Shown here: positions 21,190-49,593 of the stretch, piece after piece
How the letters are laid out: every line of letters starts with the position of its first letter
Position numbering within the stretch: position 1 is the first letter of the stretch
Assembly (NCBI GenBank): GCA_963738105.1
Contig: CAVTWC010000028.1
Coordinates: 971-64,970 of the forward strand
DNA: 64,000 nucleotides
Direction: 5' to 3'
Source of the DNA: an uncultured Alphaproteobacteria bacterium
Lineage (GTDB): Bacteria; Pseudomonadota; Alphaproteobacteria; Rhizobiales; Xanthobacteraceae
The notes under the pieces: generated by a model
What the model was told of the DNA's origin: nothing
The model's input: the letters and a program-made list of their open reading frames with translations, nothing else
The model's database searches: none
Program-made: the position numbers and the translations under genes

Positions 21190-21210
21190 GTTGAGCACGA
21201 ACCTCTCATC

Positions 21211-21289: not shown

Positions 21290-21397
21290 GAGGGGGAGAA
21301 GTTTGGCCCCAATTGCCCTAGGCTAATCCTCATTCACGCGATAACATCTGCCGTCATCAAGCACGACCGATCAAGAGTCGTCGCCGGGAGGAATGTC

Positions 21398-27542: not shown

Positions 27543-28675
27543 GCCCGCATCCTTTTCTCATAAGTCGAGAGCGCCGAGCACGCGCCGCATTTGCCGCAGC
27601 CGGCCTTGATGCTGCTGGATTTCATCCCGGCATCGACCAGCATATCCGCGAGCGGCGAGAGGATGTCGTGCATGAACAACGGCGGCGGCGTCGGATGGCT
27701 CTCCAGCGGCGTACCCGCGATCGGTACGAACGGCACCACAAAGGGATAGACGCCGACGCCGACGAGACGCTCACAGATCGCAAGGATCTCTTCCTTGCTG
27801 TCGCCGAGGCCGGCGAGGATGTAGGTCGAGACCTGACCGCGGCCGAACACCGGCACCGCGGCTTCGAACGCCTTGAAGTAACGCTCCACCGACACCTGCG
27901 CCTTGCCGGGCATGATGCGGGCACGGACGCTTTCGGTGACGGCTTCAAGATGCATGCCGAGCGAGTCGATACCAGCGTCGCGCATGCGCTGGAACCAGAC
28001 GGCGTCATCCGGCGGTTCACACTGGCCCTGGATCGGCAGATCGACCGCGGCTTTGACCCCGATCGCGCTCTCGCACAGGATTTTTGCGCCACGGTCGCTG
28101 CCAGGCGGCGTGCCCGTGGTCATCACCATATGCGTGACGCCATCGAGCTCGATCGCAGCTCTCGCCACTTCGCCGAGTTGTTCAGGGGTCTTGCGTTCGA
28201 TGGTGCGACCGGCGGCAAGCGATTGGCCGATGGCGCAGAACTGGCAGGTCTTGGTGCGGCTCTGGTAGCGTATGCAGGTCTGCAGGATCGTGGTCGCCAG
28301 CACGTCGCGGCCGTGCAGGGTCGCGATCTTGGAATAGGGAATGCCATCGGCGGTCGAGCGTTCATAGAAGCGCGGCCGCAACTGGAATTTGACTTCGCCG
28401 ATCACAGCGCCGTCGCGGCTGACCTGGCTGCGGCCGAGGCTGTCGGGCTTTGCGACAATGTACGGGCTCTCGAATGCCGGCGCGTTGTGCACCGGGATCA
28501 TCACGGTCGCGCCGTCGATCGTCATCGGCATATGGTCGGACGGACCCGCACCGCCGCGGCGGCTGTCGCCGCCGGCCTTGGGATCAACGAGACGAACCCC
28601 GAAGGATTGCAACTCGTTGATCAGCTGCTCGGTCGGGATCGGCCTCGGCGTTTCGGAAGCCAGAATCGATTTCAT
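27539..28675 (-). CDS. MSMEG_0568-family radical SAM protein (Nit1C cluster)
   Basis: 378 aa. A Cys triad is seen as [15 protein letters not shown] (C-X9-C-X2-C, not the textbook CX3CX2C), with a second Cys cluster CGKCGAC at the C-terminus. The stop overlaps the GNAT start (ATGA). Confidence 0.75.
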
Positions 28676-33090: not shown

Positions 33091-33155
33091 TAGACTCTTG
33101 TTTTGACGCGTTTTTCTTCACGCGAACCGGCGTCCACTTCGCCGGAAAACGCTCT
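33091..33155. repeat. Intergenic repeat family 2 (CGCGTAAAGAAAACGCG hairpin type), inverted copy
   Basis: The reverse complement of 33093..33150 (GCGTTTTCCGGCGAAGTGGACGCCGGTTCGCGTGAAGAAAAACGCGTCAAAACAAGAG) aligns with 39471..39530 and 44356..44415. Confidence 0.65.
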
Positions 33156-34136: not shown

Positions 34137-35504
34137 ATGGCCAACGCCTTTTTCTCCGACCTGCTTTCCACGATCTCCGAGCGGGGCCGCACCCTGCTGC
34201 GGCGCGGAAGTCCCGCCGACGCCAAACAGGACGCCTCCGAGCTGATCGAGCTCTGCGAGGCCCTGCTATCCGGCCGGGGCGAAGCTTCCGGCACGGCGAT
34301 GGCGCGCGAGGTGCTCGATCGGTATCACCACCTCGATCAGGCCGGCCGCGTCGCCTTCTTCCACACCTTGGCGCGCGATTACGGCCCGGACCGCGAGAAG
34401 CTGTCCCATGCTATCGAGACCTGGCGCTCGCAGCCCAGCGACGACGACGCCAGCGATCTGCATTTCGCCTCCGAGCCACGGCGGCAGGAACTGATTCGCC
34501 GGCTGAACCGGGCGCCCGGCGGCACCAGCGAGCTGGTGGCGATGCGCGCCGATTTGCTCAGCGCCGTCAAGGACAAAAAGGACAAAGACAAAAAGGACTT
34601 GGCCGCGCTCGACCGCGACATCGTCCATTTGCTGTCATCATGGTTCAACAGGGGATTTCTCGTGCTGCGCAGGATTGACTGGTCGAGCCCCGCCAACATC
34701 CTCGAAAAGATCATCCGCTATGAAGCGGTCCACGAAATTCGCGACTGGAACGATCTGCGTCGCCGCATCGATCCCGTCGACCGCCGCTGCTATGCGTTCT
34801 TTCATCCCGCGCTGCTCGACGAACCGCTGATCTTCGTCGAGGTGGCCTTGACCGAGTCCATCCCGGGCGCCATTGCGCCGCTGTTGGCCGAAGACCGCCA
34901 GCCGGTCGCGATCGAGCGCGCCCGTACCGCCGTGTTCTATTCGATCTCGAATACCCAGCGCGGCCTCGGCGGCATTTCCTTCGGCAACTTCCTGATCAAA
35001 CAGGTGGTCGAGGAGCTGCAGCGCGAATTACCGAAGCTGGAAAATTTCGTCACGCTGTCGCCGGTGCCGGGCTTCATGCAATGGCTGAAGCAGGCGCCCG
35101 ATGTGCCGGTGTCCGATGAAGGTCGCGCTCTGCTCGGCCAGCTCGACACGCCGGGCTGGACCGAGAACGCCGAACTCTCGACCCAGTTGCGGTCGATCAT
35201 CGAGCCATTGGCAGCGCACTATTTCCTCAAGGCACGCACGCCGAAGGGACGCCTGATCGATCCGGTGGCGCGCTTCCATCTCGGCAATGGCGCCCGTCTG
35301 GAGCGGATCGACTGGCTCGGCGATCTCTCGCCGAAAGGTTTGCGCGAATCCGCCGGGATCATGGTCAACTATCTCTATCGCCTCGACGATATCGAGAAGA
35401 ACCACGAAGCCTACGCCAACCAGGATGAGGTGGTGGCCTCCAGCGCGGTGAAGAAGCTGCTGAAGACCGAAGGCCGGCGGCTGCTGGACATGCGGCTGTC
35501 GTAG
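34137..35504 (+). CDS. Malonyl-CoA decarboxylase
   Basis: 455 aa from ATG 34137 (MANAFFSDLLSTISERGRTLL...). MCD-family pattern seen: RRCYAFFHPALLDEPLIFVEVAL, FYSISNTQRGLGGISFGNFLIKQVV, ARFHLGNGARLERI. Confidence 0.85.
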   Translation: MANAFFSDLLSTISERGRTLLRRGSPADAKQDASELIELCEALLSGRGEASGTAMAREVLDRYHHLDQAGRVAFFHTLARDYGPDREKLSHAIETWRSQPSDDDASDLHFASEPRRQELIRRLNRAPGGTSELVAMRADLLSAVKDKKDKDKKDLAALDRDIVHLLSSWFNRGFLVLRRIDWSSPANILEKIIRYEAVHEIRDWNDLRRRIDPVDRRCYAFFHPALLDEPLIFVEVALTESIPGAIAPLLAEDRQPVAIERARTAVFYSISNTQRGLGGISFGNFLIKQVVEELQRELPKLENFVTLSPVPGFMQWLKQAPDVPVSDEGRALLGQLDTPGWTENAELSTQLRSIIEPLAAHYFLKARTPKGRLIDPVARFHLGNGARLERIDWLGDLSPKGLRESAGIMVNYLYRLDDIEKNHEAYANQDEVVASSAVKKLLKTEGRRLLDMRLS

Positions 35505-35631
35505 AGGTCTGAGGCTAAAAATCGCCAGCGAAGCTGGGCCAATCAGTCACCATCGGAGGTCCGGAATAAATCAAACGTAGTGGAGATCAATCTGCCGACA
35601 GTTCGCTTCGAACGCGACCGGGGCAGATTGT

Positions 35632-35923
35632 TTGAGCAGGCGGCAGAACAGCAAGGAAAAAGGCTTTGTCCTGGAGACAGGCGGGCGCGCCGTGCTGGCA
35701 AGCGAGACAGTTGTGCGCCGAGGAATGGTTCGCCGAGGAACTCGCTTCCTATCGATCGGGCGGCCAACCCGTTTGGGACGGCTCAACCGAACTCAAGATA
35801 CGCCGCGCGAGTTCATCTGAAGCTGCCGAAATTCAAATCGCGCTGACGAGCGAATTGGCCCGCAGGGAACACGAGGGCTATTTGTTCGTGTTCCTCGTAC
35901 CGGTCGATCCCGCACTTCACTGA
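35632..35923 (+). pseudogene. Small conserved hypothetical ORF, copy A, disrupted by a 23-bp deletion
   Basis: Relative to copy B, nt 40554..40576 (CTTTCATGGCCGGTGGCATCGAG) are missing at 35698/35699. As a result the N-terminal part (track 35632..35820) and the C-terminal part (track 35666..35923) are in different frames. Confidence 0.7.
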
Positions 35924-35959
35924 CCGGTTACGGCGCCGACGCCTTACGATGCTAGGCGC

Positions 35960-37126
35960 TTACGACGCCAAGGCCTTCATTTCCTTGTAGAGATCGGATT
36001 TTCCCTCAAAGCCGATGCCCGGCAGATCCGGCATGGTGATGTGACCGTTCTCGACGCGAACGCCGTCCGGGAAACCGCCATAGGGCTGGAACAGATCGGG
36101 ATAGCTCTCATTGCCGCCGAGCCCGAGGCCGGCCGCGATGTTGAGCGACATCTGATGGCCGCCATGCGGGATGCAACGGCTCGGCGACCAGCCGAGTGTT
36201 TGCAACACACCCAGCGTGCGCTGATATTCGCACAGCCCGTAGGACAGCGCGCAATCGAATTGCAGCCAGTCGCGGTCGGGCCGCATCCCGCCGTAGCGAA
36301 TAAGGTTGCGCGCATCCTGGTGGCTGAACAGGTTTTCGCCGGTTGCCATCGGGCCCGGATAGAATTCCGCCAGTGCCGCCTGAAGCTGGAAGTCGAGGGG
36401 ATCGCCGGCTTCCTCGTACCAGAACAACGGATAATCGCGCAGCATCTTGGCGTAAGCCACCGCTGTCTCCAGGTCGAAGCGGCCATTGGCATCGACCGCG
36501 AGCTGCGCGGTACTGCCGATCTCCTTCAGTACCGCTTCGATGCGCTCGCGATCCTCCGCGATCGGCGCGCCGCCGATCTTCATCTTCACGACGCTGTAGC
36601 CGCGATCGAGATAGCCGCGCATCTCGCCACGCAGCGCCGACAAATCCTTGCCGGGATAATAATAGCCGCCGGCGGCATAGACGAACACGCGCGGATCGGC
36701 GGTGCGGCCGTGGCGTTCGGCCAGCAGGCGGAACAGCGGCTTGCCGGCGATCTTGGCCACCGCGTCCCACACCGCCATATCGATGGTGCCGACCGCGACC
36801 GAGCGCTCGCCATGGCCGCCCGGCTTTTCATTCGACATCATCGCCGCCCAAACCTTGTCCGGATCGAGATTATCGCCTGATGTGTCGAGCAGCGTCTTCG
36901 GATCGGCTTCCGTGATCCGCGACGCAAAGCGCTCGCGGATCAGTCCGCCCTGCCCGTAACGGCCATTCGAATTGAAGCCGTAACCAACCACCGTCTTGCC
37001 GTCACGCACGACATCGGTGACGACGGCGACGAGGCTCGTCGTCATCTTGGTGAAGTCGATATAGGCGTTGCGGATCGGCGAGGAGATCGGTTTGGTGATT
37101 TCGCGGACGTCGACGATACGGACCAT
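35960..37126 (-). CDS. Enolase-superfamily dehydratase, copy A (resembles the D-tartrate dehydratase TarD subgroup, from memory)
   Basis: 388 aa, intact. The sequence is MVRIVDVREITKPISSPIRNAYIDFTKMTTSLVAVVTD...KMKIGGAPI...AVDANGRF...YEEAGDPLD...GENLFS. It differs from copy B at 4 of 388 residues. Confidence 0.8.
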   Translation of the reverse strand: MVRIVDVREITKPISSPIRNAYIDFTKMTTSLVAVVTDVVRDGKTVVGYGFNSNGRYGQGGLIRERFASRITEADPKTLLDTSGDNLDPDKVWAAMMSNEKPGGHGERSVAVGTIDMAVWDAVAKIAGKPLFRLLAERHGRTADPRVFVYAAGGYYYPGKDLSALRGEMRGYLDRGYSVVKMKIGGAPIAEDRERIEAVLKEIGSTAQLAVDANGRFDLETAVAYAKMLRDYPLFWYEEAGDPLDFQLQAALAEFYPGPMATGENLFSHQDARNLIRYGGMRPDRDWLQFDCALSYGLCEYQRTLGVLQTLGWSPSRCIPHGGHQMSLNIAAGLGLGGNESYPDLFQPYGGFPDGVRVENGHITMPDLPGIGFEGKSDLYKEMKALAS

Positions 37127-37163
37127 GGGGTTTGGCTTTCTGTATTAAACGGGCCTCTTAACC

Positions 37164-37247
37164 GTCATTGCGAGCGCTAGCGAAGCAATCCAGGGGCAAC
37201 AGCCGCAGCACTGGATTGCTTCGTCGCTAACGCTCCTCGCAATGACG
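37164..37247. repeat. Palindromic REP-like element (GTCATTGCGAG family), copy in duplication unit A
   Basis: GTCATTGCGAGCGCTAGCGAAGCAATCCAGGGG...CTGGATTGCTTCGTCGCTAACGCTCCTCGCAATGAC. Confidence 0.75.
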
Positions 37248-37259
37248 AACTCTTTTTTT

Positions 37260-37508
37260 CTACGACGCCGGCTTGTCCCGGAAATACGGCTCGACCGGAC
37301 CATGGACCTTCAGCGTCAACGGATTGCCGTAGCGATCCTTGGCGTTGCCGGCGGTGACGCGCACCCAGCCCTCGCTGACGCAATATTCCTCGACATTGGT
37401 TTTCTCGACGCCCTTGAACCGGATGCCGACGTCGCGCGCTAGCACGTCGGCGTCGTAATACGGACTCTTCGGATCAGTCGACAGACGGTCGGGGAGTTGT
37501 TCGCTCAT
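37260..37508 (-). CDS. DUF3297-family protein, copy A (82 aa)
   Basis: MSEQLPDRLSTDPKSPYYDADVLARDVGIRFKGVEKTNVEEYCVSEGWVRVTAGNAKDRYGNPLTLKVHGPVEPYFRDKPAS, identical to copy B at the protein level. The track fuses it into 37260..38003 because of the broken neighbouring gene. Confidence 0.75.
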   Translation of the reverse strand: MSEQLPDRLSTDPKSPYYDADVLARDVGIRFKGVEKTNVEEYCVSEGWVRVTAGNAKDRYGNPLTLKVHGPVEPYFRDKPAS

Positions 37509-37525
37509 CGCTTCGCTTTTCTCGT

Positions 37526-38003
37526 TCATAGTAACGCCTCGATTTCTTTCGCGAGCCCTTCGGGCTTGGTCGTCGGTGCATGCCGCGCCACCACCTGGCC
37601 GGTGCGATCGACCAGGAATTTGGTGAAATTCCATTTGATCGACGATCCGAGCAGTCCGGACTTCGCGTTCTTCAGATATTGATACAGCGGATGGGCGTCG
37701 TTGCCGTTGACATCGATCTTGGCAAACATCGGAAAGGTGATGGCGTAGTTGCTGGTGCAGAATTGCTCGATCTGCCTGGCATCGCCGGGCTCCTGGCCGC
37801 CGAACTGATTGCACGGAAATCCCAGCACCGAGAAGCCGCGCGGGGCCAGCGTTTCGATGCAGCGCCTCAAGGCCCTTGTATTGCGGGGTGAAGCCGCAGG
37901 CGCTGGCGGTGTTGACGATCAGCAGCACCTTCCCCTCGAACCGCTTCAAGGGAATCTCGTCGCCGGCGAGCGACGTCGCCGTGAAATCGTAAACGCCAGC
38001 CAT
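37526..38003 (-). pseudogene. Glutathione peroxidase, copy A, one frameshift
   Basis: The N-terminal part (MAGVYDFTATSLAGDEIPLKRFEGKVLLIVNTASACGFTPQYKGLEALH) and the C-terminal part (track 37526..37870, ...ETLAPRGFSVLGFPCNQFGGQEP...WNFTKFLV) are in different frames. The switch is at about 37851-37858 (GTTTCGATGCAG versus GTCTCATGCAG in copy B). Length 478 nt = 3n+1. Confidence 0.8.
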
Positions 38004-38033
38004 CTCGTTCTTTCAGTCCGAGCCGGAGCTCGC

Positions 38034-39433
38034 TCAGTGCACGGGATCGATCGGCGCCGACGGCGTCCCACCGGCCTCGATCGCCTCGCCCGCCAGCAGG
38101 CACAAATCCTCGCGGAACCGGCCGGAAACCAGCTGGACGCCGACGGGGACGCGCCCCACCAATCCCGTGGTGACGGTTAGCGCAGGGAGCTGCATGAAGG
38201 GAATAGCAATCTGCGGCAATTGCGCCTGCCAGACCCGGGCAAAAGAGGCGTCGTCCTTGCGGTCGAGCTGGTCGGGGAACGGCAATTCGGCGCAAACCGG
38301 CATCAGCACGACCGGATATTTCTCCAGGAACTGCAGCCATTCGCGCGTGATCGTGGCCCGCCGCACCAGCGCCTTGGAGAAGGCCGCGGCATCGAACGGG
38401 AACACTTTTGAGCGGTTGCCGCGCAGGCAGGCCAGCGCGCCGGGGTCGCCTTCGCGCTCGGCCATTTCGAGCTGGGTTTCATAGCTATCGCCGAGCCACA
38501 GCTTGGTCTGCAAGTCCGCGGCCTCGCGCAAGCCCGGCACCTCGACCTCGTCCACAATCCATCCGGCGCGTTCCAGACGCTTGGCCGCATCCCGGACCGC
38601 GGCTTTCACCTCCGGGACGGTCTCAAGACCATCGGGCTGCAGGCACATCGCCACCCGCTTCGGCATCGGCGGCCCTTCGAGCGGCGCCGGCACCCACCAG
38701 GTGTCGCGCACATCGGGACCGGACATCGCCGCCAGCGCAATCCTGAGATCGCCGATAGTACGCGCCAGCGGACCCGATACCGCACTGCTTTGCGGCGCAA
38801 AGCGCCATTCAGCCACCGAAGCGTTACGAGCCGGGACCCGGCCCGCCGTCGGCCGCAGGCCGTGGACGCCGCAGGCATAGGCCGGAAAGCGGATCGAGCC
38901 CGCGATATCGGTGCCATGCGCGATATGCCCGATGCCGGCCGCAACCGCAGCGCCCGCGCCGCCGGACGAGCCGCCCGGCGTAATGCGAGGGATCGCGCGG
39001 ATTTTTGGTATCGCCGTGAATGAGGTTGGTGGTGAACCAGCGATAGGAAAACGCCGGGCAATTGGTGCGCCCGAGAATCACGGCGCCGGATTTTCGCAAA
39101 TTGTCGATCACCGGACTGTTGTCGCGCGCGATGTTGTCGCGCTGCAGCTTCAGCCCGTTGGTGTTGGCGTAACCTGCCTGATCGATATTGACCTTGACGG
39201 TCACCGTCACGCCGGCCAGCGGCCCCACCGGCTTCGCTTCGCGCGATCGCGGCGTCAATAGCGGCGGCCTGCGCCAGCACGTCTTCCGGACGATGGTCGA
39301 CCACCGCATTGATGGCTGGGTTGACCGCGTCGAGCCGCGCCAGCGCCGCCGTCGCGACTTCTTTGGCCGAGACTTTTTTCGACTTTACCGCGGCGGCGAC
39401 ATCCGTAGCCGACAGACGCCAGAGATCTTCCAT
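38034..39433 (-). pseudogene. Amidase (amidase-signature family), copy A, two frameshifts
   Basis: The gene is split into three frame segments (track 38606..39433 start, 38824..39309 middle, 38034..38816 end). Compared with copy B there are extra bases at about 39230 (GAAGCCGGTGGGG versus GAAGCGGTGGGG) and about 38985 (AATGCGAGG versus AATCGAGG). The GGSSGG signature is present. Length 1400 nt = 3n+2. Confidence 0.85.
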
Positions 39434-39470
39434 GAACTACTCCGTTTGATCGCTCGTCTTTTATAGCTTT

Positions 39471-39530
39471 TTCAATCGAAGTGGACACCGGTTCGCGTAA
39501 AGAAAACGCGTCAAAACGAGAGCTTAGCGC
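39471..39530. repeat. Intergenic repeat family 2, copy in unit A
   Basis: TTCAATCGAAGTGGACACCGGTTCGCGTAAAGAAAACGCGTCAAAACGAGAGCTTAGCGC, which contains the hairpin CGCGT-AAAGAAA-ACGCG. Confidence 0.65.
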
Positions 39531-39599
39531 CGCTGCAGCCACCGCGCTATCGCGATACCAGATTAGACAGGCCCCGGAAGGCGGGCGCCAGTCCGAAGA

Positions 39600-40169
39600 T
39601 CAGCGCACCCTGGCGATATAATAAGCGAGGTCGGCGATCTGGTCCGCCGTGACCGGGTGCAGCACCTCGGCCATGGTGCCGTCATAGCCGTGGCGGCTGT
39701 TGTCCTTGTATTCCCGCATGGTCTTGGCGAGATAATCCTCGCGCTGATTGGCGATGCGCGGAACGTTATCCCCGCCCGAGAAATCCGGTTTGTGGCAGGA
39801 ATTGCAGTGGTTCTGCGTCACCAGCGCCTGCGCCCGCGCTATCCGCGCCGGATCGCCGGCATCGGCCGGCGGCGCAGGCTTCGGCAGGGTCGCGATGAAA
39901 TCGGAAAAGCCGCGAAGGTCGTCATCGGTGAACGCCTTCGCCATCTCGTTCATCGGCTCGAAGATACGCAGCTTTTCGCGAAACATGAACAGCTGGATCA
40001 GCGCGTAAGGCGCCTGCTGCCCGCCGAGCGACGGCGTGTTTTCGGTTTCGGACTGACCGTGCTCGCCATGGCAGGCAAAGCAGGTCGCGGCGCGCTCCTG
40101 GATGGTTTCGGCACTAAGCGGCGAGGACGCAAGAAGCGCGAACGCCAGGAAGCCAAACATTTTACGCAT
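39600..40169 (-). CDS. Dihaem c-type cytochrome (c4/class I-like), copy A
   Basis: Track ORF 39600..40250. Starts at ATG 40169 ([20 protein letters not shown] signal). Two CxxCH motifs are present (CFACH, CNSCH). Confidence 0.85.
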
Positions 40170-40201
40170 CGGAGATCGTCCTGACAAATCATCGAAGGAA
40201 A

Positions 40202-40240
40202 ATAAAAACGAAAAAGCCGGGGGCAGCGTGCCGCCCCCGA
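40202..40240 (-). terminator. Rho-independent terminator after the (truncated) dehydrogenase fragment
   Basis: The minus strand reads GTCGGGGGCGGCACGCTGCCCCCGGCTTTTTCGTTTTTAT: a 7-bp GC stem followed by a T-rich run. Confidence 0.65.
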
Positions 40241-40253
40241 CTTGACGCAAATG

Positions 40254-40448
40254 TTATTGCGCAGCCACCTTGTTCGGCTTGCCGTAGGTGACGCGATAGA
40301 CGGCGCCGTTCCAGTCGTCGGAAACCAGGAGCGAGCCGTCCTTCATCTGCATCACGTCGACCGGCCGGCCGTTGTATTTGTTGTCTTCGAGAAAGCCGGT
40401 GATGAAGGGCTCCACGGACTTGACCGTGCCGTCCTTGTTCAACTTGAC
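40254..40448 (-). pseudogene. 3'-terminal fragment (about 64 codons) of the PQQ-dependent sugar dehydrogenase, created by the tandem duplication
   Basis: ...KLNKDGTVKSVEPFITGFLEDNKYNGRPVDVMQMKDGSLLVSDDWNGAVYRVTYGKPNKVAAQ* aligns with the C-terminus of the full gene 45139..46418. Homology ends at the duplication junction. Confidence 0.85.
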
Positions 40449-40486
40449 ACAGTTCGTTCTCGAACGCGACCGGGGCAGATCGTTTG

Positions 40487-40801
40487 ATGAGCAGGCGGCA
40501 GAACATCAAGGAAAAAGGCTTTGTCCTGGAGACAGGCGGGCGCGCCGTGCTGGCTTTCATGGCCGGTGGCATCGAGCAAGCGAGACACCTGTGCGCCGAG
40601 GAATGGTTCGCCGAGGAACTCGCTTCCTATCGGTCGGGCGGCCAACCCGTTTGGGATGGCTCGACCGAACTCAAGATTCGGCGCGCGAGCCCATCTGAAG
40701 CTGCCGAAATTCAAATCGCGCTGACGGGCGAATTGGCCCGCAAGGAATACGAGGGCTATTTGTTCGTGTTCTTCGTACCGGTCGATCCCGCACTTCACTG
40801 A
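40487..40801 (+). CDS. Small conserved hypothetical protein, copy B (104 aa, intact)
   Basis: MSRRQNIKEKGFVLETGGRAVLAFMAGGIEQARHLCAEEWFAEELASYRSGGQPVWDGSTELKIRRASPSEAAEIQ...YLFVFFVPVD. The pattern F-x-x-E-x-x-G, EA/QA-x-x-L-x-x-E-x-W, G-x-P-x-W-D-G recalls a small-protein family recurrent in rhizobia (from memory). Confidence 0.5.
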   Translation: MSRRQNIKEKGFVLETGGRAVLAFMAGGIEQARHLCAEEWFAEELASYRSGGQPVWDGSTELKIRRASPSEAAEIQIALTGELARKEYEGYLFVFFVPVDPALH

Positions 40802-40837
40802 CCGGTTACGGCGCCAAGGCCTTACGACGCCAAGCGC

Positions 40838-42004
40838 TTACGACGCCAAGGCCTTCATCTCCTTGTAGAGATCGGATTTTCCCTCAAAGCCGATGCCCGG
40901 CAGGTCCGGCATGGTGATGTGTCCGTTCTCGACGCGAACGCCATCCGGGAAACCGCCATAGGGCTGGAACAGATCGGGATAGCTCTCATTGCCGCCGAGC
41001 CCGAGGCCGGCCGCGATGTTGAGCGACATCTGATGCCCGCCATGCGGGATGCAGCGGCTCGGCGACCAGCCGAGCGTCTGCAGCACACCCAGCGTGCGCT
41101 GGTATTCGCAAAGGCCGTAGGACAGCGCGCAATCGAATTGCAGCCAGTCGCGGTCGGGCCGCATCCCGCCGTAACGAAGCAGGTTGCGCGCATCCTGGTG
41201 GCTGAACAGGTTTTCGCCGGTTGCCATCGGCCCCGGATAGAATTCCGCCAGTGCGGCCTGAAGCTGGAAGTCGAGCGGATCGCCGGCTTCCTCGTACCAG
41301 AACAACGGATAATCGCGCAGCATCTTGGCGTAGGCCACCGCGGTCTCCAGGTCGAAACGGCCGTTGGCATCGACCGCGAGTTGCGCGGTGCTGCCGATCT
41401 CCTTCAGCACGGCTTCGATGCGCTCGCGGTCCTCCGCGATCGGCGCGCCGCCGATCTTCATCTTCACGACGTTGTAGCCGCGGTCGAGATAGCCGCGCAT
41501 TTCGCCGCGCAGCGCCGACAGATCCTTGCCGGGATAATAATAGCCGCCGGCGGCATAGACGAACACGCGCGGATCGGCGGTGCGGCCGTGACGTTCAGCC
41601 AGCAAGCGGAACAGCGGCTTGCCGGCGATCTTGGCCACCGCGTCCCACACCGCCATGTCGATGGTGCCGACCGCGACCGAGCGCTCGCCATGGCCGCCCG
41701 GCTTCTCGTTCGACATCATCGCCGCCCAGACCTTGTCCGGATCGAGATTATCGCCTGATTTGTCGAGCAACGTGTTCGGATCGGCTTCCGTGATCCGCGA
41801 CGCAAAGCGCTCGCGGATCAAGCCGCCCTGCCCGTAACGGCCATTCGAATTGAAGCCGTAACCAACCACCGTCTTGCCGTCGCGCACGACATCGGTGACG
41901 ACGGCGACAAGGCTCGTCGTCATCTTGGTGAAATCGATATAGGCGTTGCGGATGGGCGACGAGATCGGTTTGGTGATTTCGCGGACGTCGACGATACGGA
42001 CCAT
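40838..42004 (-). CDS. Enolase-superfamily dehydratase, copy B (TarD-like subgroup, from memory)
   Basis: 388 aa, intact. It is 4 substitutions from copy A (e.g. ADPNTLLDKS versus ADPKTLLDTS; GYNVVKM versus GYSVVKM). Confidence 0.8.
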   Translation of the reverse strand: MVRIVDVREITKPISSPIRNAYIDFTKMTTSLVAVVTDVVRDGKTVVGYGFNSNGRYGQGGLIRERFASRITEADPNTLLDKSGDNLDPDKVWAAMMSNEKPGGHGERSVAVGTIDMAVWDAVAKIAGKPLFRLLAERHGRTADPRVFVYAAGGYYYPGKDLSALRGEMRGYLDRGYNVVKMKIGGAPIAEDRERIEAVLKEIGSTAQLAVDANGRFDLETAVAYAKMLRDYPLFWYEEAGDPLDFQLQAALAEFYPGPMATGENLFSHQDARNLLRYGGMRPDRDWLQFDCALSYGLCEYQRTLGVLQTLGWSPSRCIPHGGHQMSLNIAAGLGLGGNESYPDLFQPYGGFPDGVRVENGHITMPDLPGIGFEGKSDLYKEMKALAS

Positions 42005-42047
42005 GGTGTTTGGCTTTCTGTTATTACGTCGTGGCCTGGCTTAACCC

Positions 42048-42130
42048 GTCATTGCGAGCGCTTGCGAAGCAATCCAGGGGCAACAGCCGCAGCACTGGAT
42101 TGCTTCGTCGCTAACGCTCCTCGCAATGAC
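42048..42130. repeat. Palindromic REP-like element (GTCATTGCGAG family), copy in unit B
   Basis: GTCATTGCGAGCGCTTGCGAAGCAATCCAGGGG...CTGGATTGCTTCGTCGCTAACGCTCCTCGCAATGAC. Confidence 0.75.
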
Positions 42131-42146
42131 GAACTCTGTTTTGGCT

Positions 42147-42395
42147 CTACGACGCCGGCTTATCCCGGAAATACGGCTCGACCGGACCATGGACTTTCAG
42201 CGTCAACGGATTGCCGTAGCGATCCTTGGCGTTGCCGGCGGTGACGCGCACCCAGCCCTCGCTGACGCAATATTCCTCGACATTGGTTTTCTCGACGCCC
42301 TTGAAACGGATACCGACGTCGCGCGCGAGCACGTCGGCGTCGTAATACGGGCTCTTCGGATCGGTCGACAGACGGTCGGGGAGTTGTTCGCTCAT
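42147..42395 (-). CDS. DUF3297-family protein, copy B
   Basis: 82 aa, identical in protein sequence to copy A. Confidence 0.75.
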   Translation of the reverse strand: MSEQLPDRLSTDPKSPYYDADVLARDVGIRFKGVEKTNVEEYCVSEGWVRVTAGNAKDRYGNPLTLKVHGPVEPYFRDKPAS

Positions 42396-42889
42396 CGACT
42401 TCGCTCTTCTCGTTCACAGTACGCCTCGATTTCTTTCGTAAGCCCTTCGGGCTTGGTCGTCGGTGCATGCCGCGCCACCACCTGGCCGGCACGATCGACC
42501 AGGAATTTGGTGAAATTCCATTTGATCGACGATCCGAGCAGTCCGGACTTCGCGTTCTTCAGATATTGATACAGCGGATGGGCGTCGTTGCCGTTGACAT
42601 CGATCTTGGCAAACATCGGAAAGGTGATGGCATAGTTGCTGGTGCAGAATTGCTCGATCTGCCTGGCGTCGCCGGGCTCCTGGCTGCCGAACTGATTGCA
42701 CGGAAATCCCAGCACCGAAAAGCCGCGCGGGGCCAGCGTCTCATGCAGCGCCTCGAGGCCCTTGTATTGCGGGGTGAAGCCGCAGGCGCTCGCGGTGTTG
42801 ACGATCAGCAGCACCTGGCCCTCGAACCGCTTCAAGGGAATCTCATCGCCGGCGAGCGACGTCGCCGTGAAATCGTAAACGCCAGCCAT
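42392..42889 (-). CDS. Glutathione peroxidase, copy B (intact, Cys-type)
   Basis: 165 aa. The active-site NTASACGFTPQY has a TGC Cys codon, and WNFTKFLV is present. The C-terminus is 8 aa longer than expected (EIEAYCEREERSR versus EIEALL in copy A) because of a 1-nt difference, so the stop overlaps the DUF3297 start. Confidence 0.8.
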   Translation of the reverse strand: MAGVYDFTATSLAGDEIPLKRFEGQVLLIVNTASACGFTPQYKGLEALHETLAPRGFSVLGFPCNQFGSQEPGDARQIEQFCTSNYAITFPMFAKIDVNGNDAHPLYQYLKNAKSGLLGSSIKWNFTKFLVDRAGQVVARHAPTTKPEGLTKEIEAYCEREERSR

Positions 42890-42919
42890 CTCGTTCTTTC
42901 AGTCCGAGCCGGAGCTCAC

Positions 42920-44318
42920 TCAGTGCACGGGATCGACCGGCGCCGACGGCGTCCCACCGGCTTCGATCGCCTCGCCCGCCAGCAGGCACAAATCCTCGCG
43001 GAACCGGCCGGAAACCAGCTGGACGCCGACGGGGACGCGCCCCACCAATCCCGTGGTGACGGTTAGCGCAGGGAGCTGCATGAAGGGAATAGCAATCTGC
43101 GGCAATTGCGCCTGCCATACCCGGGCAAAGGAGGCGTCGTCCTTGCGGTCGAGCTGGTCGGGGAACGGCAATTCGGCGCAAACCGGCATCAGCACGACCG
43201 GATATTTCTCCAGGAATTGCAGCCATTCGCGCGTGATCGTGGCCCGCCGCACCAGCGCCCTGGAGAAGGCCGCGGCATCGAACGGGAACACTTTTGAGCG
43301 GTTGCCGCGCAGGCAGGCCAGCGCGCCGGGGTCGCCTTCGCGCTCGGCCATTTCGAGCTGGGTTTCATAGCTATCGCCGAGCCATAGCTTGGTCTGCAGG
43401 TCCGCGGCCTCGCGCAAGCCGCGGCACCTCGACTTCGTCCACCGTCCATCCGGCGCGTTCCAGACGCTTGGCCGCATCCCTGACCGCGGCTTTCACCTCC
43501 GGGACGGTCTCAAGACCATCGGGCTGCAGGCACATCGCCACCCGCTTCGGCATCGGCGGCCCTTCGAGCGGCGCCGGCACCCACCAGGTGTCGCGCACAT
43601 CGGGACCGGACATCGCCGCCAGCGCAATCCGGAGATCGCCGATGGTGCGCGCCAGCGGACCCGATACCGCGCTGCTTTGCGGCGCAAAGCGCCATTCCGC
43701 CACCGAAGCGTTACGGGCCGGGACCCGGCCCGCCGTCGGCCGCAGGCCGTGGACGCCGCAGGCATAGGCCGGATAGCGGATCGAGCCCGCGATATCGGTG
43801 CCATGCGCGATATGCCCGATGCCGGCCGCAACCGCAGCGCCCGCGCCGCCGGACGAGCCACCCGGCGTAATCGAGGGATCGCGCGGATTTTTGGTATCGC
43901 CGTGAATGAGGTTGGTGGTGAACCAGCGATAGGAAAACGCCGGGCAATTGGTGCGTCCGAGAATCACGGCGCCGGATTTTCGCAAATTGTCGATCACCGG
44001 GCTGTTGTCGCGCGCGATGTTGTCGCGCTGCAGCTTGAGTCCGTTGGTGTTGGCGTAGCCTTCCTGATCGATATTGACCTTGACGGTCACCGTCACGCCG
44101 GCCATCGGCCCCACCGCTTCGCTTCGCGCGATCGCAGCGTCAATGGCGGCGGCCTGTGCCAGCACATCTTCCGGACGATGGTCGACCACCGCATTGATGG
44201 CTGGGTTGACCGCGTCGAGCCTCGCCAGCGCTGCCGTCGCGACTTCTTTGGCCGAGACTTTTTTCGACTTTACCGCGGCGGCGACATCCGTAGCCGACAG
44301 ACGCCAGAGATCTTCCAT
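42920..44318 (-). pseudogene. Amidase (amidase-signature family), copy B, one frameshift
   Basis: The N-terminal 300 codons are track ORF 43371..44318 (GGSSGGAGAAVAAG, GTDIAGSIR) and the C-terminal part is track ORF 42920..43477. The switch is at about 43420-43423 (AAGCCGCGGCACC versus AAGCCCGGCACC in copy A). Length 1399 nt = 3n+1. Confidence 0.85.
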
Positions 44319-44355
44319 GAACTGCTCCGTTTGATCGCTCGTCTTCTATAGCGTT

Positions 44356-44415
44356 TTCAATCGAAGTGGACACCGGTTCGCGTAAAGAAAACGCGTCAAA
44401 ACGAGAGCTTAGCGC
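44356..44415. repeat. Intergenic repeat family 2, copy in unit B
   Basis: Nearly identical to 39471..39530. Confidence 0.65.
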
Positions 44416-44484
44416 CGCTGCAGCCACCGCGCTATCGCGATACCAGATTAGACAGGCCCCGGAAGGCGGGCTCCAGTCCGAAGA

Positions 44485-45054
44485 TCAGCGCACCCTGGCG
44501 ATATAGTAAGCGAGGTCGGCGATCTGGTCTGATGTGACCGAGTTCAGCACCTCGGCCATGGTGCCGTCATAGCCATGGCGGGAGTTGTCCTTGTATTCCC
44601 GCATGGTCTTGGCGAGGTAATCCTCGCGCTGATTGGCGATGCGCGGAACGTTGTCGCCGCCCGAGAAATCCGGTTTGTGGCATGAATTGCAGTGGTTCTG
44701 CGTCACCAGCGCCTGGGCCCGCGCTATCCGCGCCGGATCGCCGGCATCGGCCGGCGGCGCAGGCTTCGGCAGGGTCGCGATGAAATCGGAAAACCCGCGA
44801 AGGTCGTCATCGGTGAACGCTTTCGTCATGTCGTTCATCGGCTCGAAGGTACGCAGCTTTTCGCGAAACATGAACAGCTGGATCAGCGCATAAGGCGCCT
44901 GCTGCCCGCCGAGCGACGGCGTGTTCTCCGTTTCGGACTGACCGTGTTCGCCGTGGCAGGCAAAGCAGGTCACGGCGCGTTCCTGGACAGTCTCGGCACG
45001 AAGCGGCGAGGACGCCAGAAGCGCGAACGCCAGGAAGCCAAACATTTTACGCAT
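44485..45054 (-). CDS. Dihaem c-type cytochrome, copy B
   Basis: Track ORF 44485..45093. Starts at ATG 45054 ([10 protein letters not shown]...). Two CxxCH motifs are present. It has about 9 substitutions relative to copy A. Confidence 0.85.
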
Positions 45055-45089
45055 CGGGAGATAGTCCTGGCGGGTCATCGTGGAAAACA

Positions 45090-45127
45090 GCAACGAAAAA
45101 GCCGGGGGCAGCGCGCCGCCCCCGGCT
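45090..45127 (-). terminator. Stem-loop after the sugar dehydrogenase gene
   Basis: The minus strand reads GCCGGGGGCGGCGCGCTGCCCCCGGCTTTTTCG: a GC stem plus a short T-run. Confidence 0.55.
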
Positions 45128-45138
45128 TGGCTCAGATA

Positions 45139-46418
45139 TTATTGTGCAGCCACCTTGTTCGGCTTGCCGTAGGTGATGCGATAGACGGCGCCATTCCAGT
45201 CGTCGGAAACCAGCAGCGAACCGTCTTTCATCTGCATCACGTCGACCGGCCGGCCGAGATATTTGTTGTCCTCGATGAAGCCGGTCAGGAACGGCTCGAC
45301 GGATTTCACCGTGCCATCCTTGTTGAGCTTGACCAGGGCGATATCGCCGCCGGTCTTTTGCGACTTATTCCAGGAGCCATGACGCGCCACGAAGATCGCG
45401 TCCTTGTAGGCCTTCGGGAACATGCTGCCCGTGTAGAAGCGCAAGCCGAGCGAGGCGGTGTGCGGTCCCATCAGGCCGACCGGTGGGGTGTAGTCCTTGC
45501 AGGAATGGCCCCAACCGAATTCAACATCGACAATATTGCCCTGATAGCAATATGGCGCACCGAAGTCCTCGCCAACCTTGGTGACCCGATTGAGTTCGTC
45601 CTCCGGCACGCTTTCCGACAACCAGTCGCGGCCATTGTCGGTGAAATACATTTGCTTGGTTTCCGGATTCCAGTCGAAACCGACGCTGTTACGAACGCCG
45701 TAAGCGACGACTTCAGCACCGGTACCGTCGAGATTCATGCGGCGAATCTGGCCATGCGCGTCGTCGTGCAGCACGTTATTGCCGGGCTGACCGACCGGGA
45801 CATAGAGCTTGTTGTCGGGACCGACGGCGATGAACTTCCAGCCGTGGGCTTCGTCCTTTGGCAAATTGTCATAGATCGTGGTCGGCTTCGGCGGGTTGTC
45901 GATGACATCGTCAACCTTGTCGATCTTGTCGATCTTGGAGAGCTCCGCGATGAACAGCGTGCCGTTGTGGAACGCCACGCCGTTCGGCCGATACAGGCCG
46001 GACGCCAGCACCTTGACCTCGCGCTTGCCGTCCTTGTTGGTGATTGCATAGACCTTGTCGACCAGGCGGCTGCCGACGAACACTGTGCCCTTGTCGCTCT
46101 GCGCCAGCGAGCGCGCGTTCGCCATGCCGGCGGCATAGACCTCGACGTTGAAGCCCGGCGGCACCTTGAGTTTGGCCGTCGGCAATTTGTCGGCAGCGGT
46201 GGCGAGCGGCGGACCTGCGACCGGCGCAAGCTTGGCGGCGGCTTCGCCGTCGGGCGACCGATCAAGGGTGATCCCGGCGGAAGTGCGGGCGCGGCTGATG
46301 GTGCAGCGCCGGCGGCCGGAGCGGCCGGCTGCTGCGCTGCAGCACCAAACGTAAACGCACCAAAAAAGGCGCCCGCGAGCAACAGGCTGCGCGGCCCGGA
46401 AAGGCTTATCGTCATCAT
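45139..46418 (-). pseudogene. PQQ-dependent sugar (glucose/sorbosone) dehydrogenase, soluble beta-propeller type, with one frameshift after the signal peptide
   Basis: The mature part is track ORF 45139..46452 (PPGFNVEVYAAGMANARSL...GRPVDVMQMKDGSLLVSDDWNG). The start and signal peptide (MMTISLSGPRSLLLAGAFFGAFTFGAAAQQ, GGGAGAA before ATG 46418) are in the frame of track ORF 45735..46520. The switch is at about 46250-46262. Length 1280 nt = 3n+2. Confidence 0.8.
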
Positions 46419-46673
46419 ATTCTCCCTCTGTGGAAGCCTTGTCCCAACGCAAGCGAGCACCCCTGCTGCGCGGATGGCCTTCCTGATCTCACTCTCCGAT
46501 ATTTCTCCGCGGTTGCGCAATAGCGAAGGGACGGTGACGTATGTGCCACCTGCGCCGGAATAGAGACGGGCAATCGGTGCTGCGCGCGATCAATCAAATT
46601 TGAAAATGGCCTCGTTCGGAGAGCGCTGAAGGGTCCGACCTCGATTTGCGCGCGCATGGGGCGGGCCGAATCG

Positions 46674-47333: not shown

Positions 47334-47382
47334 TCGGCTGCGCTAGTTCACGTTTTTCGCAGGTGGATCTCCGGCTCTAGCT

Positions 47383-47398
47383 CGTCCCGATCGGGGCG
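47383..47398 (+). terminator. Small hairpin downstream of pqqA (possible attenuator/processing site)
   Basis: CGTCCCGATCGGGGCG, containing the palindrome CCCGATCGGG. No clear U-tract. Confidence 0.3.
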
Positions 47399-47420
47399 TG
47401 CTTGAGTTGGTGTCCGCCTT

Positions 47421-47492
47421 CGAAACGTTTGGGTACCGCGAAACGTTTGGGTACCGCGAAACGTTTGGGTACTTCGAAACGTTTAGGTGCCA
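47421..47492 (+). repeat. Tandem repeat, 4 x 18 bp (CGAAACGTTTGGGTACCG consensus) in the pqqA-pqqB spacer
   Basis: The units lie at 47421, 47439, 47457 and 47475. The first two are identical and the last two degenerate. Each unit contains two short palindromes (AAACGTTT and GGTACC). The array ends at the pqqB ribosome-binding site. Confidence 0.9.
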
Positions 47493-47503
47493 GGAGACGG
47501 ATC

Positions 47504-48433
47504 ATGCTTCGCGTCGTCGTTCTGGGCGCCGCGGCGGGCGGTGGGGTTCCACAGTGGAATTGCGGATGTCCGGTGTGCCGGATGGCGCGGTCTGAACGCC
47601 CCGAGCTTCAGAGCACACAGGCCTCGATTGCAATCAGCGCCGATGGCGAACACTGGTTTCTGATCAACGCCTCGCCTGATTTACGCCAGCAATTGATTGC
47701 GACGCCTCAACTGCATCCGGCTGCCGGAAAGCTTCGTCACAGCCCGATCGCAGGCGTTATTTTGACCAACGGAGAGATCGACGCGGTCGCAGGCCTGCTG
47801 TCGATGCGCGAGGGCTGGCCGTTCACGATCTACGCCCATCCGCGCGTGCTTTCGATCCTGCGGACCAACAGCATCTTCAACGTGCTGAGCGAGAAAAACG
47901 TGCAGCGACAGCCGATCGAGGTGAACGCCGCGTTCGAACCGACGTTACCCGATGGTTCGCCATCCGGCATCGAGGTCTTGCCATTTGCGGTTCCCGGCAA
48001 GGGCGCGTGGTATCTCGAAGGCAAGGCGCATCCGGCTGGAGAAACCGGCGACGGCGATACGCTCGGACTGCGGATTCTGGACAAGACAAGCGGCAAGCAT
48101 TTCTACTTCCTCGCCGCTTGCGCTGACGTTACCGACGATCTCAAATCGCGACTTAACGGCGCCTCGGCGATTTTCTTCGACGGTACGGTGTGGCGCGACG
48201 ACGAATTGATCGTGGCGGGCCTCGGCGCCAAGACGGGCCAGGGCATGGGCCATATCGCGATGTCGGGGCATCGCGGCGCGATCGAAAGCCTCGCCGGCCT
48301 CGATATCGACAGGAAGATATTCTTGCATATCAACAACTCCAACCCGGTGCTGCTGCACGGCTCCGCTGAGCGTAAAACCGCCGAGCGCGCCGGGTGGCAG
48401 ATTCCCGCTGATGGAACGGAGATTACGCTGTGA
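47504..48433 (+). CDS. pqqB: PQQ biosynthesis protein B (metallo-beta-lactamase fold)
   Basis: Track ORF 47402..48433. The canonical N-terminus MLRVVVLGAAAGGGVPQWNCGCPVC starts at ATG 47504, with GGAG upstream. Confidence 0.9.
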   Translation: MLRVVVLGAAAGGGVPQWNCGCPVCRMARSERPELQSTQASIAISADGEHWFLINASPDLRQQLIATPQLHPAAGKLRHSPIAGVILTNGEIDAVAGLLSMREGWPFTIYAHPRVLSILRTNSIFNVLSEKNVQRQPIEVNAAFEPTLPDGSPSGIEVLPFAVPGKGAWYLEGKAHPAGETGDGDTLGLRILDKTSGKHFYFLAACADVTDDLKSRLNGASAIFFDGTVWRDDELIVAGLGAKTGQGMGHIAMSGHRGAIESLAGLDIDRKIFLHINNSNPVLLHGSAERKTAERAGWQIPADGTEITL

Positions 48434-49224
48434 ACGTCCAGACCTCGACCGCCAAAACCGCGGATGGAATCACCGCCTACTCCGTCGGCAAGAACATTCC
48501 GCTCAACAGCGCCGCGGATCTGGAAGCCGCCCTTCGCCACATCGGGGCGACGCGCTATCACAGTCTGCACCCGTTCCACGGCCTGCTGCATGGCGGCAAG
48601 CTCAACAAGGGCCAGGTGCAGGCCTGGGCGCTGAACCGCTATTACTACCAGAGCACCATCCCGCTAAAGGACGCCGTGGTGATCTCGCGCTTCCGCGACC
48701 GTGGCATCCGGCTCGAATGGCGGCACCGGATCGAAGATCATGATGGCGACCTCGGCACCGAAGGCGGCATCGAGCGCTGGCTGAAGCTCACCGAAGGGCT
48801 CGGGCTCGACAGCGTCTATGTGGAATCCACCGAAGGCATCCTGCCCGCGACCCGCTTTGCCGTGGAAGCCTATGTGCATTTCGTGCGCGACCGGACGCCG
48901 CTGGAAGCCATTGCCTCCTCACTGACGGAATTATTCGCGCCGAACCTGCATGAAGAGCGCATCTCGGGCATGCTAGCGCATTATAATTTCGTCAATCCTG
49001 ATATCATGAGCTATTTCAGCCGGCGGTTACAGCAGGCGCCGCGCGATGCCGGCTTTGCGCTCGACTACGTCAAGGCTAACGCCAACACGCCAGCCGAGCG
49101 CGAGGCGGTCTGCAATGCCCTGATCTTCAAGACCAACGTGCTATGGGTTCAGCTCGATGCGCTGTACCATGCTTATGTCAACGGCCATATTCCGCCGGGG
49201 GCGTTCGTGCCCCAGGAAAGCTAA
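48430..49224 (+). CDS. pqqC: Pyrroloquinoline-quinone synthase PqqC
   Basis: 264 aa with the motifs HPFHGLLHGGKLNKGQVQAWALNRYYYQ and RFAVEAYVHFV. The GTG start overlaps the pqqB stop. Confidence 0.9.
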   Translation: MNVQTSTAKTADGITAYSVGKNIPLNSAADLEAALRHIGATRYHSLHPFHGLLHGGKLNKGQVQAWALNRYYYQSTIPLKDAVVISRFRDRGIRLEWRHRIEDHDGDLGTEGGIERWLKLTEGLGLDSVYVESTEGILPATRFAVEAYVHFVRDRTPLEAIASSLTELFAPNLHEERISGMLAHYNFVNPDIMSYFSRRLQQAPRDAGFALDYVKANANTPAEREAVCNALIFKTNVLWVQLDALYHAYVNGHIPPGAFVPQES

Positions 49225-49275
49225 AGTAACTCGAAGTAAGCTGAAGCAAGCTAAAGCCAAAAGAAGGCAAACCCA

Positions 49276-49593
49276 ATGGCAGCCGGGCGCAGCCGCAACA
49301 TCAGTGTCAGCGAAGCCAGCCGGCCGGTGTTGCCGCGGCATGCCAAACTGAAATTCGATGAGACGCGACAGGTCTGGGTGATCCTGGCGCCGGAGCGCGT
49401 GCTGGCGCCCGATGAGATTGCGGTCGAAGTGCTGCAACTATGCGACGGCGTGCGCAGCGTCGCCGACGTGGTCGACCTGCTCGCTGCGAAATACGCCGCC
49501 GAGCGCAGCGCTATCGCCACCGACGTCATCGCCATGCTGCAGGATTTGGCCGACAAAGGCTTTGTGACGGAAGCCCGCGAGAAGACATCATGA
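49276..49593 (+). CDS. pqqD: PQQ biosynthesis peptide chaperone PqqD
   Basis: 105 aa with the motifs PRHAKLKFDETRQVWVILAPERVLAPDEIAVEVLQLCDG and ML..L...G. Confidence 0.85.
   Translation: MAAGRSRNISVSEASRPVLPRHAKLKFDETRQVWVILAPERVLAPDEIAVEVLQLCDGVRSVADVVDLLAAKYAAERSAIATDVIAMLQDLADKGFVTEAREKTS

Follow-up and report, generated by a model that had tools for sequence, protein, structure and literature searches.

Tandem duplications that arise spontaneously and independently of RecA, by illegitimate joining in Salmonella and E. coli, start out with two identical copies. Genetic exchange is a further source of adjacent copies, as merodiploid tandem duplications arise during this process (Johnston et al., 2013; PMC3784515). 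These merodiploids are true merozygotes in which a tandem duplication holds both donor and recipient alleles, and a few kb of donor DNA suffice to make them; they need repeats (IS861) at both ends, have a hybrid repeat at the junction, and cover 100-900 kb (PMC3784515). Adjacent copies can also be a product of assembly, as in the heterotype (haplotypic) false duplications of diploid assemblies, a term in use in the Vertebrate Genomes Project, where haplotype stretches of higher divergence end up in the assembly as neighboring paralogues and lead to false gene gains (Ko et al., 2022; PMC9516828). Here we analyze a repeat found in 64,000 nucleotides (hereafter the window) of contig CAVTWC010000028.1 from an uncultured Alphaproteobacteria bacterium of the Xanthobacteraceae, where a block of ~4.9 kb with six genes is written twice head-to-tail (units A and B). 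The window sits on a draft contig of 66,529 nt (NCBI, ENA) and not on a finished chromosome. Our results make it very probable that the two units are pre-existing alleles of one locus, and that the difference between them is not decay following a duplication. With caution, we favor a strain-mixed assembly mosaic as the source of what looks like a diverged duplication, with two strain alleles of the locus standing in tandem.

The locus can be compared with each of these systems. It shares with the RecA-independent duplications the head-to-tail arrangement, one end that falls inside a gene, little or no homology at the junction, and single-copy relatives. Unlike the copies in such duplications, A and B differ by pre-existing alleles and each is in part nearer to other genomes. 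The likeness to the merodiploids lies in the tandem arrangement of two alleles, but the unit is only 4.9 kb long, there is no flanking repeat, and the junction is blunt. As in heterotype false duplications, adjacent diverged alleles of one locus can be read as paralogues that were gained or are decaying, population polymorphisms separate the two copies, and the assembly has other signs of mixed haplotypes. The difference is that co-occurring bacterial strains would here take the place of the two chromosomes of a diploid, and that the gap between copies, which is typical in PMC9516828, is absent between A and B. Whether read as artefact or as merodiploid, the locus belongs to a known type of object. 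The analysis demonstrates no new gene, element or mechanism, and the case has little biological weight.

Structure of the repeat

Local self-alignment of the region defines two units and one novel junction:

35598..40448, 4851 bp: repeat unit A, with a left flank continuous with the ancestral sequence of metagenome contigs L081 and L082
40449..45333, 4885 bp: repeat unit B, with a right flank (45334-45929) 99.5% identical to L082
40443..40456: novel junction between 40448 and 40449, CTTGAC joined to ACAGTTCG, blunt, 0 nt overlap

The units abut directly and are the only long repeat within the window. Their alignment has 4844 columns with 201 mismatches (95.85% identity, or one mismatch per ~24 nt) and 17 indel events. 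The longest identical stretches are 155, 149 and 140 nt and are located at 38077-38743. The two units share one order of minus-strand features, namely the 3' end of a pyrroloquinoline quinone (PQQ) sugar dehydrogenase gene, a cytochrome c gene, an amidase gene, a glutathione peroxidase (GPx) gene, a DUF3297 gene, a palindrome resembling repetitive extragenic palindromic (REP) elements, and a gene for an enolase-superfamily enzyme. A small open reading frame (ORF) on the plus strand completes the feature set of both A and B. A first-pass annotation of this DNA had described a head-to-tail duplication with its right end inside the dehydrogenase gene, and both points are borne out by the local alignment, with the last 64 codons of that gene lying within unit B. 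Its counts of four amino acid differences in the 388-residue enolase-family protein and nine in the 189-residue cytochrome c are correct, and the alignment contains the 23-bp indel (B 40553-40575), the 3-bp indel and the several 1-nt indels that it reported.

The un-rearranged parental sites of the junction are found in the single-copy contig L082 and read ...CTTGAC/CAGGGC and ...CTGCCG/ACAGTTCG. These parental ends have no repeat in common. A microhomology of 3-4 nt had been proposed for the junction, but comparison with the L082 sites leaves zero overlapping bases. The sequence runs unbroken across 40448/40449, with no Ns, no gap and no contig boundary. A search of JGI metagenome contigs with a degenerate 31-mer across the junction had no match, and there is thus no independent sighting of it.

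Single-copy relatives

Approximately 45 Bradyrhizobium/Afipia-like loci from one-per-species reference genomes carry the locus once each, with no second copy within 10 kb. Their order is dehydrogenase, cytochrome c, amidase, GPx and enolase, followed by a convergent malonyl-CoA decarboxylase gene. The top match of the enolase-family protein in this set is only 94% identical, and the species of the window is therefore not among the references. Closer relatives were obtained by exact look-up of the enolase A protein, which returned metagenome contigs L081, L082 and L083 with 96-99% DNA identity to the window. All three have the locus once and with all genes intact (amidase 465 residues, GPx 158, DUF3297 89, cytochrome c 189 or 197, small ORF 104), and L088, L170 and others agree. 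L085 has a full-length intact dehydrogenase gene, and L088 is single-copy with normal flanks. A comparison with related genomes had been proposed as a check, and it gives a single-copy locus in every relative examined, with all genes intact in the ~45 reference loci and in 5 near-identical metagenome contigs. All close relatives found are metagenome contigs, and several samples hold strains that are 96-99% similar.

The enolase B, cytochrome c A, dehydrogenase, decarboxylase and AraC proteins gave no exact record beyond the window's own contig. A 109.6-kb ENA contig (ERZ25039543 contig_66585) is 97.8% identical to the window; look-ups by PqqB, PqqC, PqqD, PqqE and the decarboxylase toward the locus on this contig returned only short contigs that resemble the common allele (s1, see below). 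A plasmid search matched only distant enolase-family homologues.

Several of the metagenome contigs (L081/L169, L170, L082 and L083) end in or near the locus, with ends in the enolase-family gene, inside the dehydrogenase gene and in the small ORF. Such contig ends may reflect strain-level graph tangles at the locus.

The window is also without a segment of ~3 kb that is carried by L081 (1670-4656), L082, L088 and L170, the gap site being at 35504-35551. In these relatives, the segment separates the small ORF from the malonyl-CoA decarboxylase gene and encodes a TonB-dependent receptor of 810 residues. This deletion ends ~45-90 bp from the left edge of unit A, as its right edge is fuzzy.

Allele composition of the two units

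L082 was used as the third sequence in counts of site patterns between A and B. Within the left ~3.5 kb of the unit, A equals L082 against B at 110 sites, while B equals L082 against A at 18 sites (A-private). Within the right ~1.2 kb, it is B that equals L082 against A at 79 sites, and A that equals L082 against B at ~1 site. Identity to L082 is 97.4% for A-left and 95.7% for B-left, compared to 93.0% for A-right and 99.4% for B-right. Both flanks are s1-like, with 97.7% (left) and 99.5% (right) identity to single-copy contigs. The resulting segments are:

35598..38887: A-left, the common single-copy population allele s1, assigned from site patterns against L082
38888..39468 (= B 43775-44353): switch zone in A, in the N-terminal half of the amidase, with interleaved allele markers
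39469..44353: inner block of A-right, junction and B-left, the second allele s2, as one circularly permuted unit

The run of B-private sites stops at 38887 and the run of A-private sites begins at 38973, with interleaved markers up to 39468; the allele switch is found at the matching unit coordinate in both copies. By these site patterns, the window is ordered as s1-left, s2-right, junction, s2-left and s1-right. L082 and L083 differ from one another within the switch zone. The four sequences show all allele combinations there, and the population therefore recombines.

Variants of both A and B recur in the independent contigs L082, L083, L085 and L088 and are thus segregating alleles. L085 has A's base at 17 of the 22 sites in the dehydrogenase stub and at 24 of 30 sites in cytochrome c, and L088 has B's base at 32 of 49 enolase sites. 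Since outgroups have A's base at ~22 of the 31 sites that separate the two cytochrome c copies, A is not a degenerating copy. The units are also not sister copies, as A-left and B-right each fall with L082/L083 rather than with the other unit. We regard the units, with high confidence, as two alleles of one locus. The donor lineage of s2 was not found among the sequences searched; the best matches, L085 for A-right (91.7%) and L088 for B-left (92.3%), are relatives of the second allele.

A real duplication could have obtained this composition if it was formed earlier in an s2-type genome, and its outer halves and flanks were subsequently overwritten by two independent s1 imports. Recombination is evidently frequent at the locus, and the s1-like flanks are in line with such imports. 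However, the end-points of the imports must coincide within ~100-500 bp of the 4.9-kb unit, which is a coincidence of roughly 5-10%, and single-copy DNA imported with an end-point inside the repeat would more often reduce the duplication to one copy. We therefore consider this history quite improbable.

Age of the divergence

The first-pass annotation had interpreted the repeat as an old tandem duplication formed in situ, with ~4% divergence, asymmetric pseudogenisation, and retention of the enolase-family, DUF3297 and cytochrome c genes through dosage. This model is in line with the head-to-tail geometry and with a gene truncated at the junction, and also with the three genes that are intact in both units while several are broken in A. 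The dehydrogenase stub of unit A cannot make a protein, and it is therefore expected to drift neutrally after a duplication in place. Yet the stub comparison between A and B gives 14.5 synonymous and only 6.5 non-synonymous changes, with a synonymous rate (dS) of 0.44 and a ratio of non-synonymous to synonymous rates (dN/dS) of 0.10. Had the A branch alone been neutral, ~26 non-synonymous changes would be expected, and neutrality of the stub is rejected (binomial test, p=2.2e-5).

The genes that are now broken give similar values, with an A versus B dN/dS of 0.096 for the amidase and 0.097 (corrected) for GPx. For the intact pairs, a dN/dS calculation had been proposed as a check, and what it returns is purifying selection that predates the junction (enolase-family 0.025, DUF3297 0, cytochrome c 0.15). 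The ~4.5% difference between A and B is thereby shown to be standing allelic variation older than the junction. The divergence accumulated in functional single genes of separate lineages, and the junction and any loss of function are recent by comparison. In addition, the copies are not monophyletic relative to the single-copy contigs, cytochrome c A keeps the ancestral base at most of the differing sites (~22/31), and A's variants recur in natural alleles such as L085. Collectively, these results largely refute the old in situ duplication, which we regard as very improbable indeed.

A young junction predicts intact genes, and therefore their intactness is no evidence of dosage selection. The proposal that the enolase-family, DUF3297 and cytochrome c genes are cargo selected for dosage is thus unsupported, as their state is the null expectation. 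The non-identity of A and B had also been used to argue against an assembly artefact. This argument fails, since a difference of 4.5% corresponds to strain-level allelic variation, which is the signature of a heterotype false duplication.

Genes of the units and their frameshifts

The genes and elements of the two units are as follows:

35580..35923, plus strand: small ORF of unit A, disrupted by three deletions private to A (1 bp at 35608, 3 bp at 35633, 23 bp at 35698)
40484..40801, plus strand: small ORF of unit B, intact; 104 residues in relatives
35960..37126, minus strand: enolase-superfamily (MR/MLE) enzyme, copy A, 388 residues; protein identical to that of L081-L083
40838..42004, minus strand: enolase-superfamily enzyme, copy B, 388 residues; 4 amino acid and 45 synonymous changes relative to A
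37162-37258 (A) and 42046-42142 (B): REP-like palindromic element; related copies at 21209-21290 and 33095-33153
37260..37529, minus strand: DUF3297, copy A, 89 residues; Pfam PF11730, E=1e-39
42147..42413, minus strand: DUF3297, copy B, domain intact; first available ATG at 42395 gives 82 residues
37526..38003, minus strand: glutathione peroxidase, copy A, +1 insertion at 37856/7
42392..42889, minus strand: glutathione peroxidase, copy B, intact except for a C-terminus rewritten by a +1/-1 pair
38034..39433, minus strand: amidase, copy A, +1 insertions at 38985 and 39232
42920..44318, minus strand: amidase, copy B, +1 insertion at 43421
39600..40169, minus strand: cytochrome c, copy A, 189 residues, intact; Pfam Cytochrom_C
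44485..45054, minus strand: cytochrome c, copy B, 189 residues, intact; 2 residues differ from L082
40254..40448, minus strand: 3' stub of the PQQ sugar dehydrogenase in unit A, 64 codons and stop
45139..46452, minus strand: full-length PQQ-dependent sugar dehydrogenase, Pfam GSDH; last 64 codons in unit B

An asymmetric decay had been described from these genes, and the list of broken genes stands (the small ORF, GPx and, twice, the amidase in A; the amidase once in B). Its interpretation as decay after duplication does not, as dN/dS is ~0.1 in the stub and the broken amidases and the halves of the units are nearer to the single-copy population allele than to their supposed paralogue. For unit B, the amidase frameshift at 43421 is present, but the list misses a compensated +1/-1 pair at 42398/42421. 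The two changes are 22 nt apart; they rewrite the last residues of GPx-B, which gains seven residues, and remove the ATGA overlap where DUF3297-B would normally start, so that the first available ATG is internal and gives 82 residues instead of 89. In unit A, the shifted frame of GPx-A continues into the DUF3297 frame and forms a fused ORF of 247 residues. The undeleted sequence of the small ORF is present in both L081 and L082, and this ORF had no Pfam or NCBIfam match.

The window contains six uncompensated frameshifts (27218, 37857, 38985, 39232, 43421 and 55819), all of which are +1 and outside homopolymers. Most genuine frameshift mutations arise as slips in homopolymers or as deletions. 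The frameshifts of the repeat were polarised against intact relatives, and two of the insertions spell out both alleles: at 37856-7, the G of L082/L083 and the A of unit B appear together as GA in unit A, and at 39231-2, the G of L082/L083 and the C of unit B appear together as GC in unit A. At least two such both-allele doublets among the four repeat insertions would occur by chance with a probability of ~0.004. Two of the three frameshifts in A (38985 and 39232) fall in the switch zone.

The same type of doublet is found outside the repeat, where a +A at 55819 splits the alpha subunit gene of a 2-oxoacid:acceptor oxidoreductase (korA; ORFs 54270-55955 and 55711-56319, plus strand). Positions 55786-55825 of the window read TCGTATCTTC, while relative L164 reads TCGTTCTTC and has an intact protein of 615 residues. 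The window has TCG-TATC-TTC, with the TATC at 55818-21, and the close relative TCG-TTC-TTC, and this residue is Phe (TTC) in 89 and Tyr (TAC) in 18 of 107 homologues. The TATC therefore looks like both alleles written together, i.e., a consensus error. The remaining frameshift, a +C at 27218, breaks the gene of a GNAT acetyltransferase of 182 residues (~26995-27544, minus strand) when compared to JGI metagenome contigs L169 and L170.

The density of frameshifts is ~10x higher in the repeat (4 in 9.7 kb) than in the rest of the window (2 in 54 kb), and the repeat is where two alleles with ~200 differing sites are piled together. The private changes of A-left comprise 7 indels and 18 substitutions, versus 5 and 149 in the left flank (Fisher p=2e-4). 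A generally indel-prone assembly was rejected as an explanation, as the 6.6-kb left flank has zero frameshifted genes compared to L081.

Six of six frameshifts are +1 insertions outside homopolymers and three of these are allele doublets, which indicates that reads from more than one haplotype went into the consensus. It is strongly suggested that most of the 1-nt frameshifts arose as consensus errors where two alleles were piled up. A mixture of strains in the read set is expected since several samples hold such similar strains, and the korA doublet shows the mixing directly. The frameshifts are thus poor evidence of decay, as most bear the mark of mixed-read consensus error, and the both-allele doublet is a signature that flags such errors. 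Both amidase copies are broken though the gene was under purifying selection until now; the loss of both is odd biologically and expected from errors. The 23-, 3- and 1-bp deletions in the small ORF of A are not error-like and may be real variants.

Origin of the tandem arrangement

Strain mixing during assembly is the origin towards which we lean, a little better than evenly. The contig would then be a consensus from an uncultured, Bradyrhizobium-like bacterium of soil that is present as a mixture of closely related strains. A second strain would carry a young tandem duplication, with a junction that is real in its reads, and reads from the single-copy strain, anchored in the flanks, may have overwritten the outer halves of the repeat during consensus building or polishing. 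Such overwriting would make the alleles switch in complementary directions at one coordinate of the unit, in A as well as in B, together with a fuzzy, error-rich mixed zone. That the second strain has a real duplication is probable, given that the sequence is continuous at the junction and that joins of this kind are seldom invented by assemblers. In a less likely sub-case, the junction would be an end-to-end join of two unmerged haplotype contigs, which fits the blunt junction but not the absence of a gap.

Several points weigh against this origin. The junction has no Ns or other seam, and graph or overlap assemblers normally need read support for non-homologous joins, so that at least the junction itself probably exists in a real molecule. 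The switch at 38888-38973 lies off the identical runs of 155, 149 and 140 nt, which is where mis-threading of a k-mer graph is expected. A matching coincident switch and a patchy heteroduplex zone are also what a single reciprocal crossover in a real chromosome predicts. Further, the 23-bp and 3-bp deletions of A are unlike consensus errors, and the polishing scenario is our inference from sequence alone.

Simple mis-threading of a k-mer graph at the longest shared stretch was considered separately and is unsupported, as the switch zone is not at those runs.

Alternatively, the structure could be physically real, as a two-allele (heteroallelic) tandem merodiploid that was formed through inter-strain recombination in a young event. 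We give this a smaller but appreciable probability. By this route, ~4.9 kb of s2 DNA from a ~5% diverged strain would have carried the junction already, either from a tandem duplication in the donor or from an end-joined circle, and one reciprocal exchange near unit coordinate 3300 would have brought it into the s1 chromosome (Campbell-type/'ends-in', or bridging sister chromatids). The frameshifts would be recent mutations, or errors that polishing introduced when reads were cross-mapped between A and B. This route predicts exactly the mosaic and the coincidence of the switch points seen here, and also the allelic divergence from before the junction. The interleaved markers at 38973-39468 resemble patchy heteroduplex repair, and the population recombines. 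The junction is continuous sequence with no gap, and assembly of a true repeat is feasible when the copies differ every ~24 nt and share at most 155 nt. Merodiploids made by transformation are also documented (PMC3784515).

However, tandem duplications are unstable, and dominance of the merodiploid in a population consensus needs fixation or selection. The junction is absent from the relatives and metagenome contigs searched, the assembly mixes strains outside the repeat too, and both amidase copies are broken. In addition, the documented mechanism uses flanking repeats and leaves a hybrid repeat, neither of which is seen at the A/B junction. In its specific form, with one ~4.9-kb unit that is ~5% diverged, blunt-closed and inserted into a single-copy locus by a single crossover, we find a real and stable merodiploid doubtful. 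The unit size is close to the head capacity of alphaproteobacterial gene transfer agents, and delivery by such an agent is pure speculation. The consensus contains two allele classes, which would lie on one molecule in a real merodiploid.

Under either form of the assembly mosaic, the asymmetry of the decay is without evolutionary meaning. A physically real structure would be a case of natural inter-strain merodiploidy in a soil bacterium and would bear on how recombination gives rise to transient heterozygosity and raw material for new genes; the cell would be 'heterozygous' for the enolase-family enzyme, DUF3297 and cytochrome c. As to method, the locus is a useful cautionary case, as a diverged tandem repeat in a metagenome-derived contig here mimics an evolving duplication with pseudogenes. 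Three sequence-only tests, namely dN/dS of the stub, three-way site patterns against single-copy relatives, and outgroup polarisation, showed the divergence to be allelic and to predate the junction, and these can be reused on other candidates.

Other features of the window

The REP-like element of the units is ~90 nt long (CCGTCATTGCGAGCG...CGCTCCTCGCAATGACG) and has intergenic copies in the window. REP-like palindromes are typical of Bradyrhizobiaceae genomes. A separate sequence of ~58 nt is found at 39465-39522 and 44350-44407 and is similar to part of L081. The 95-residue ORFs at 39255-39542 and 44140-44427 were rejected as genes, as they lack a Pfam match and run across the amidase N-terminus in a different frame.

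An operon for PQQ synthesis, pqqB-pqqC-pqqD-pqqE, is located at 47381-50798 (plus strand), ~1 kb from the 5' end of the divergently transcribed pair of PQQ-dependent dehydrogenase and cytochrome c genes. Just upstream of pqqB, at 47432, there is an 18-bp tandem duplication (GGTACCGCGAAACGTTTG), which relative L166 is without.

Insertion sequence (IS) elements or remnants are present at 7935-8840 and 12609-13569 (plus strand). They comprise an IS110-family transposase ORF (DEDD_Tnp_IS110) and an IS630-like pair of overlapping ORFs, which has an HTH domain followed by DDE_3. The stretch between the two elements (8.8-12.6 kb) has a weak guanine-cytosine (GC) signal by codon position and may be foreign DNA.

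A weakly similar (65%), inverted pair of ~1.1 kb is found at 14982-16071 and 59998-61087. The copy at 59998-61087 is a gene for a periplasmic solute-binding protein (Peripla_BP_6 / ANF_receptor) in L164, and the pair are ordinary distant paralogues.

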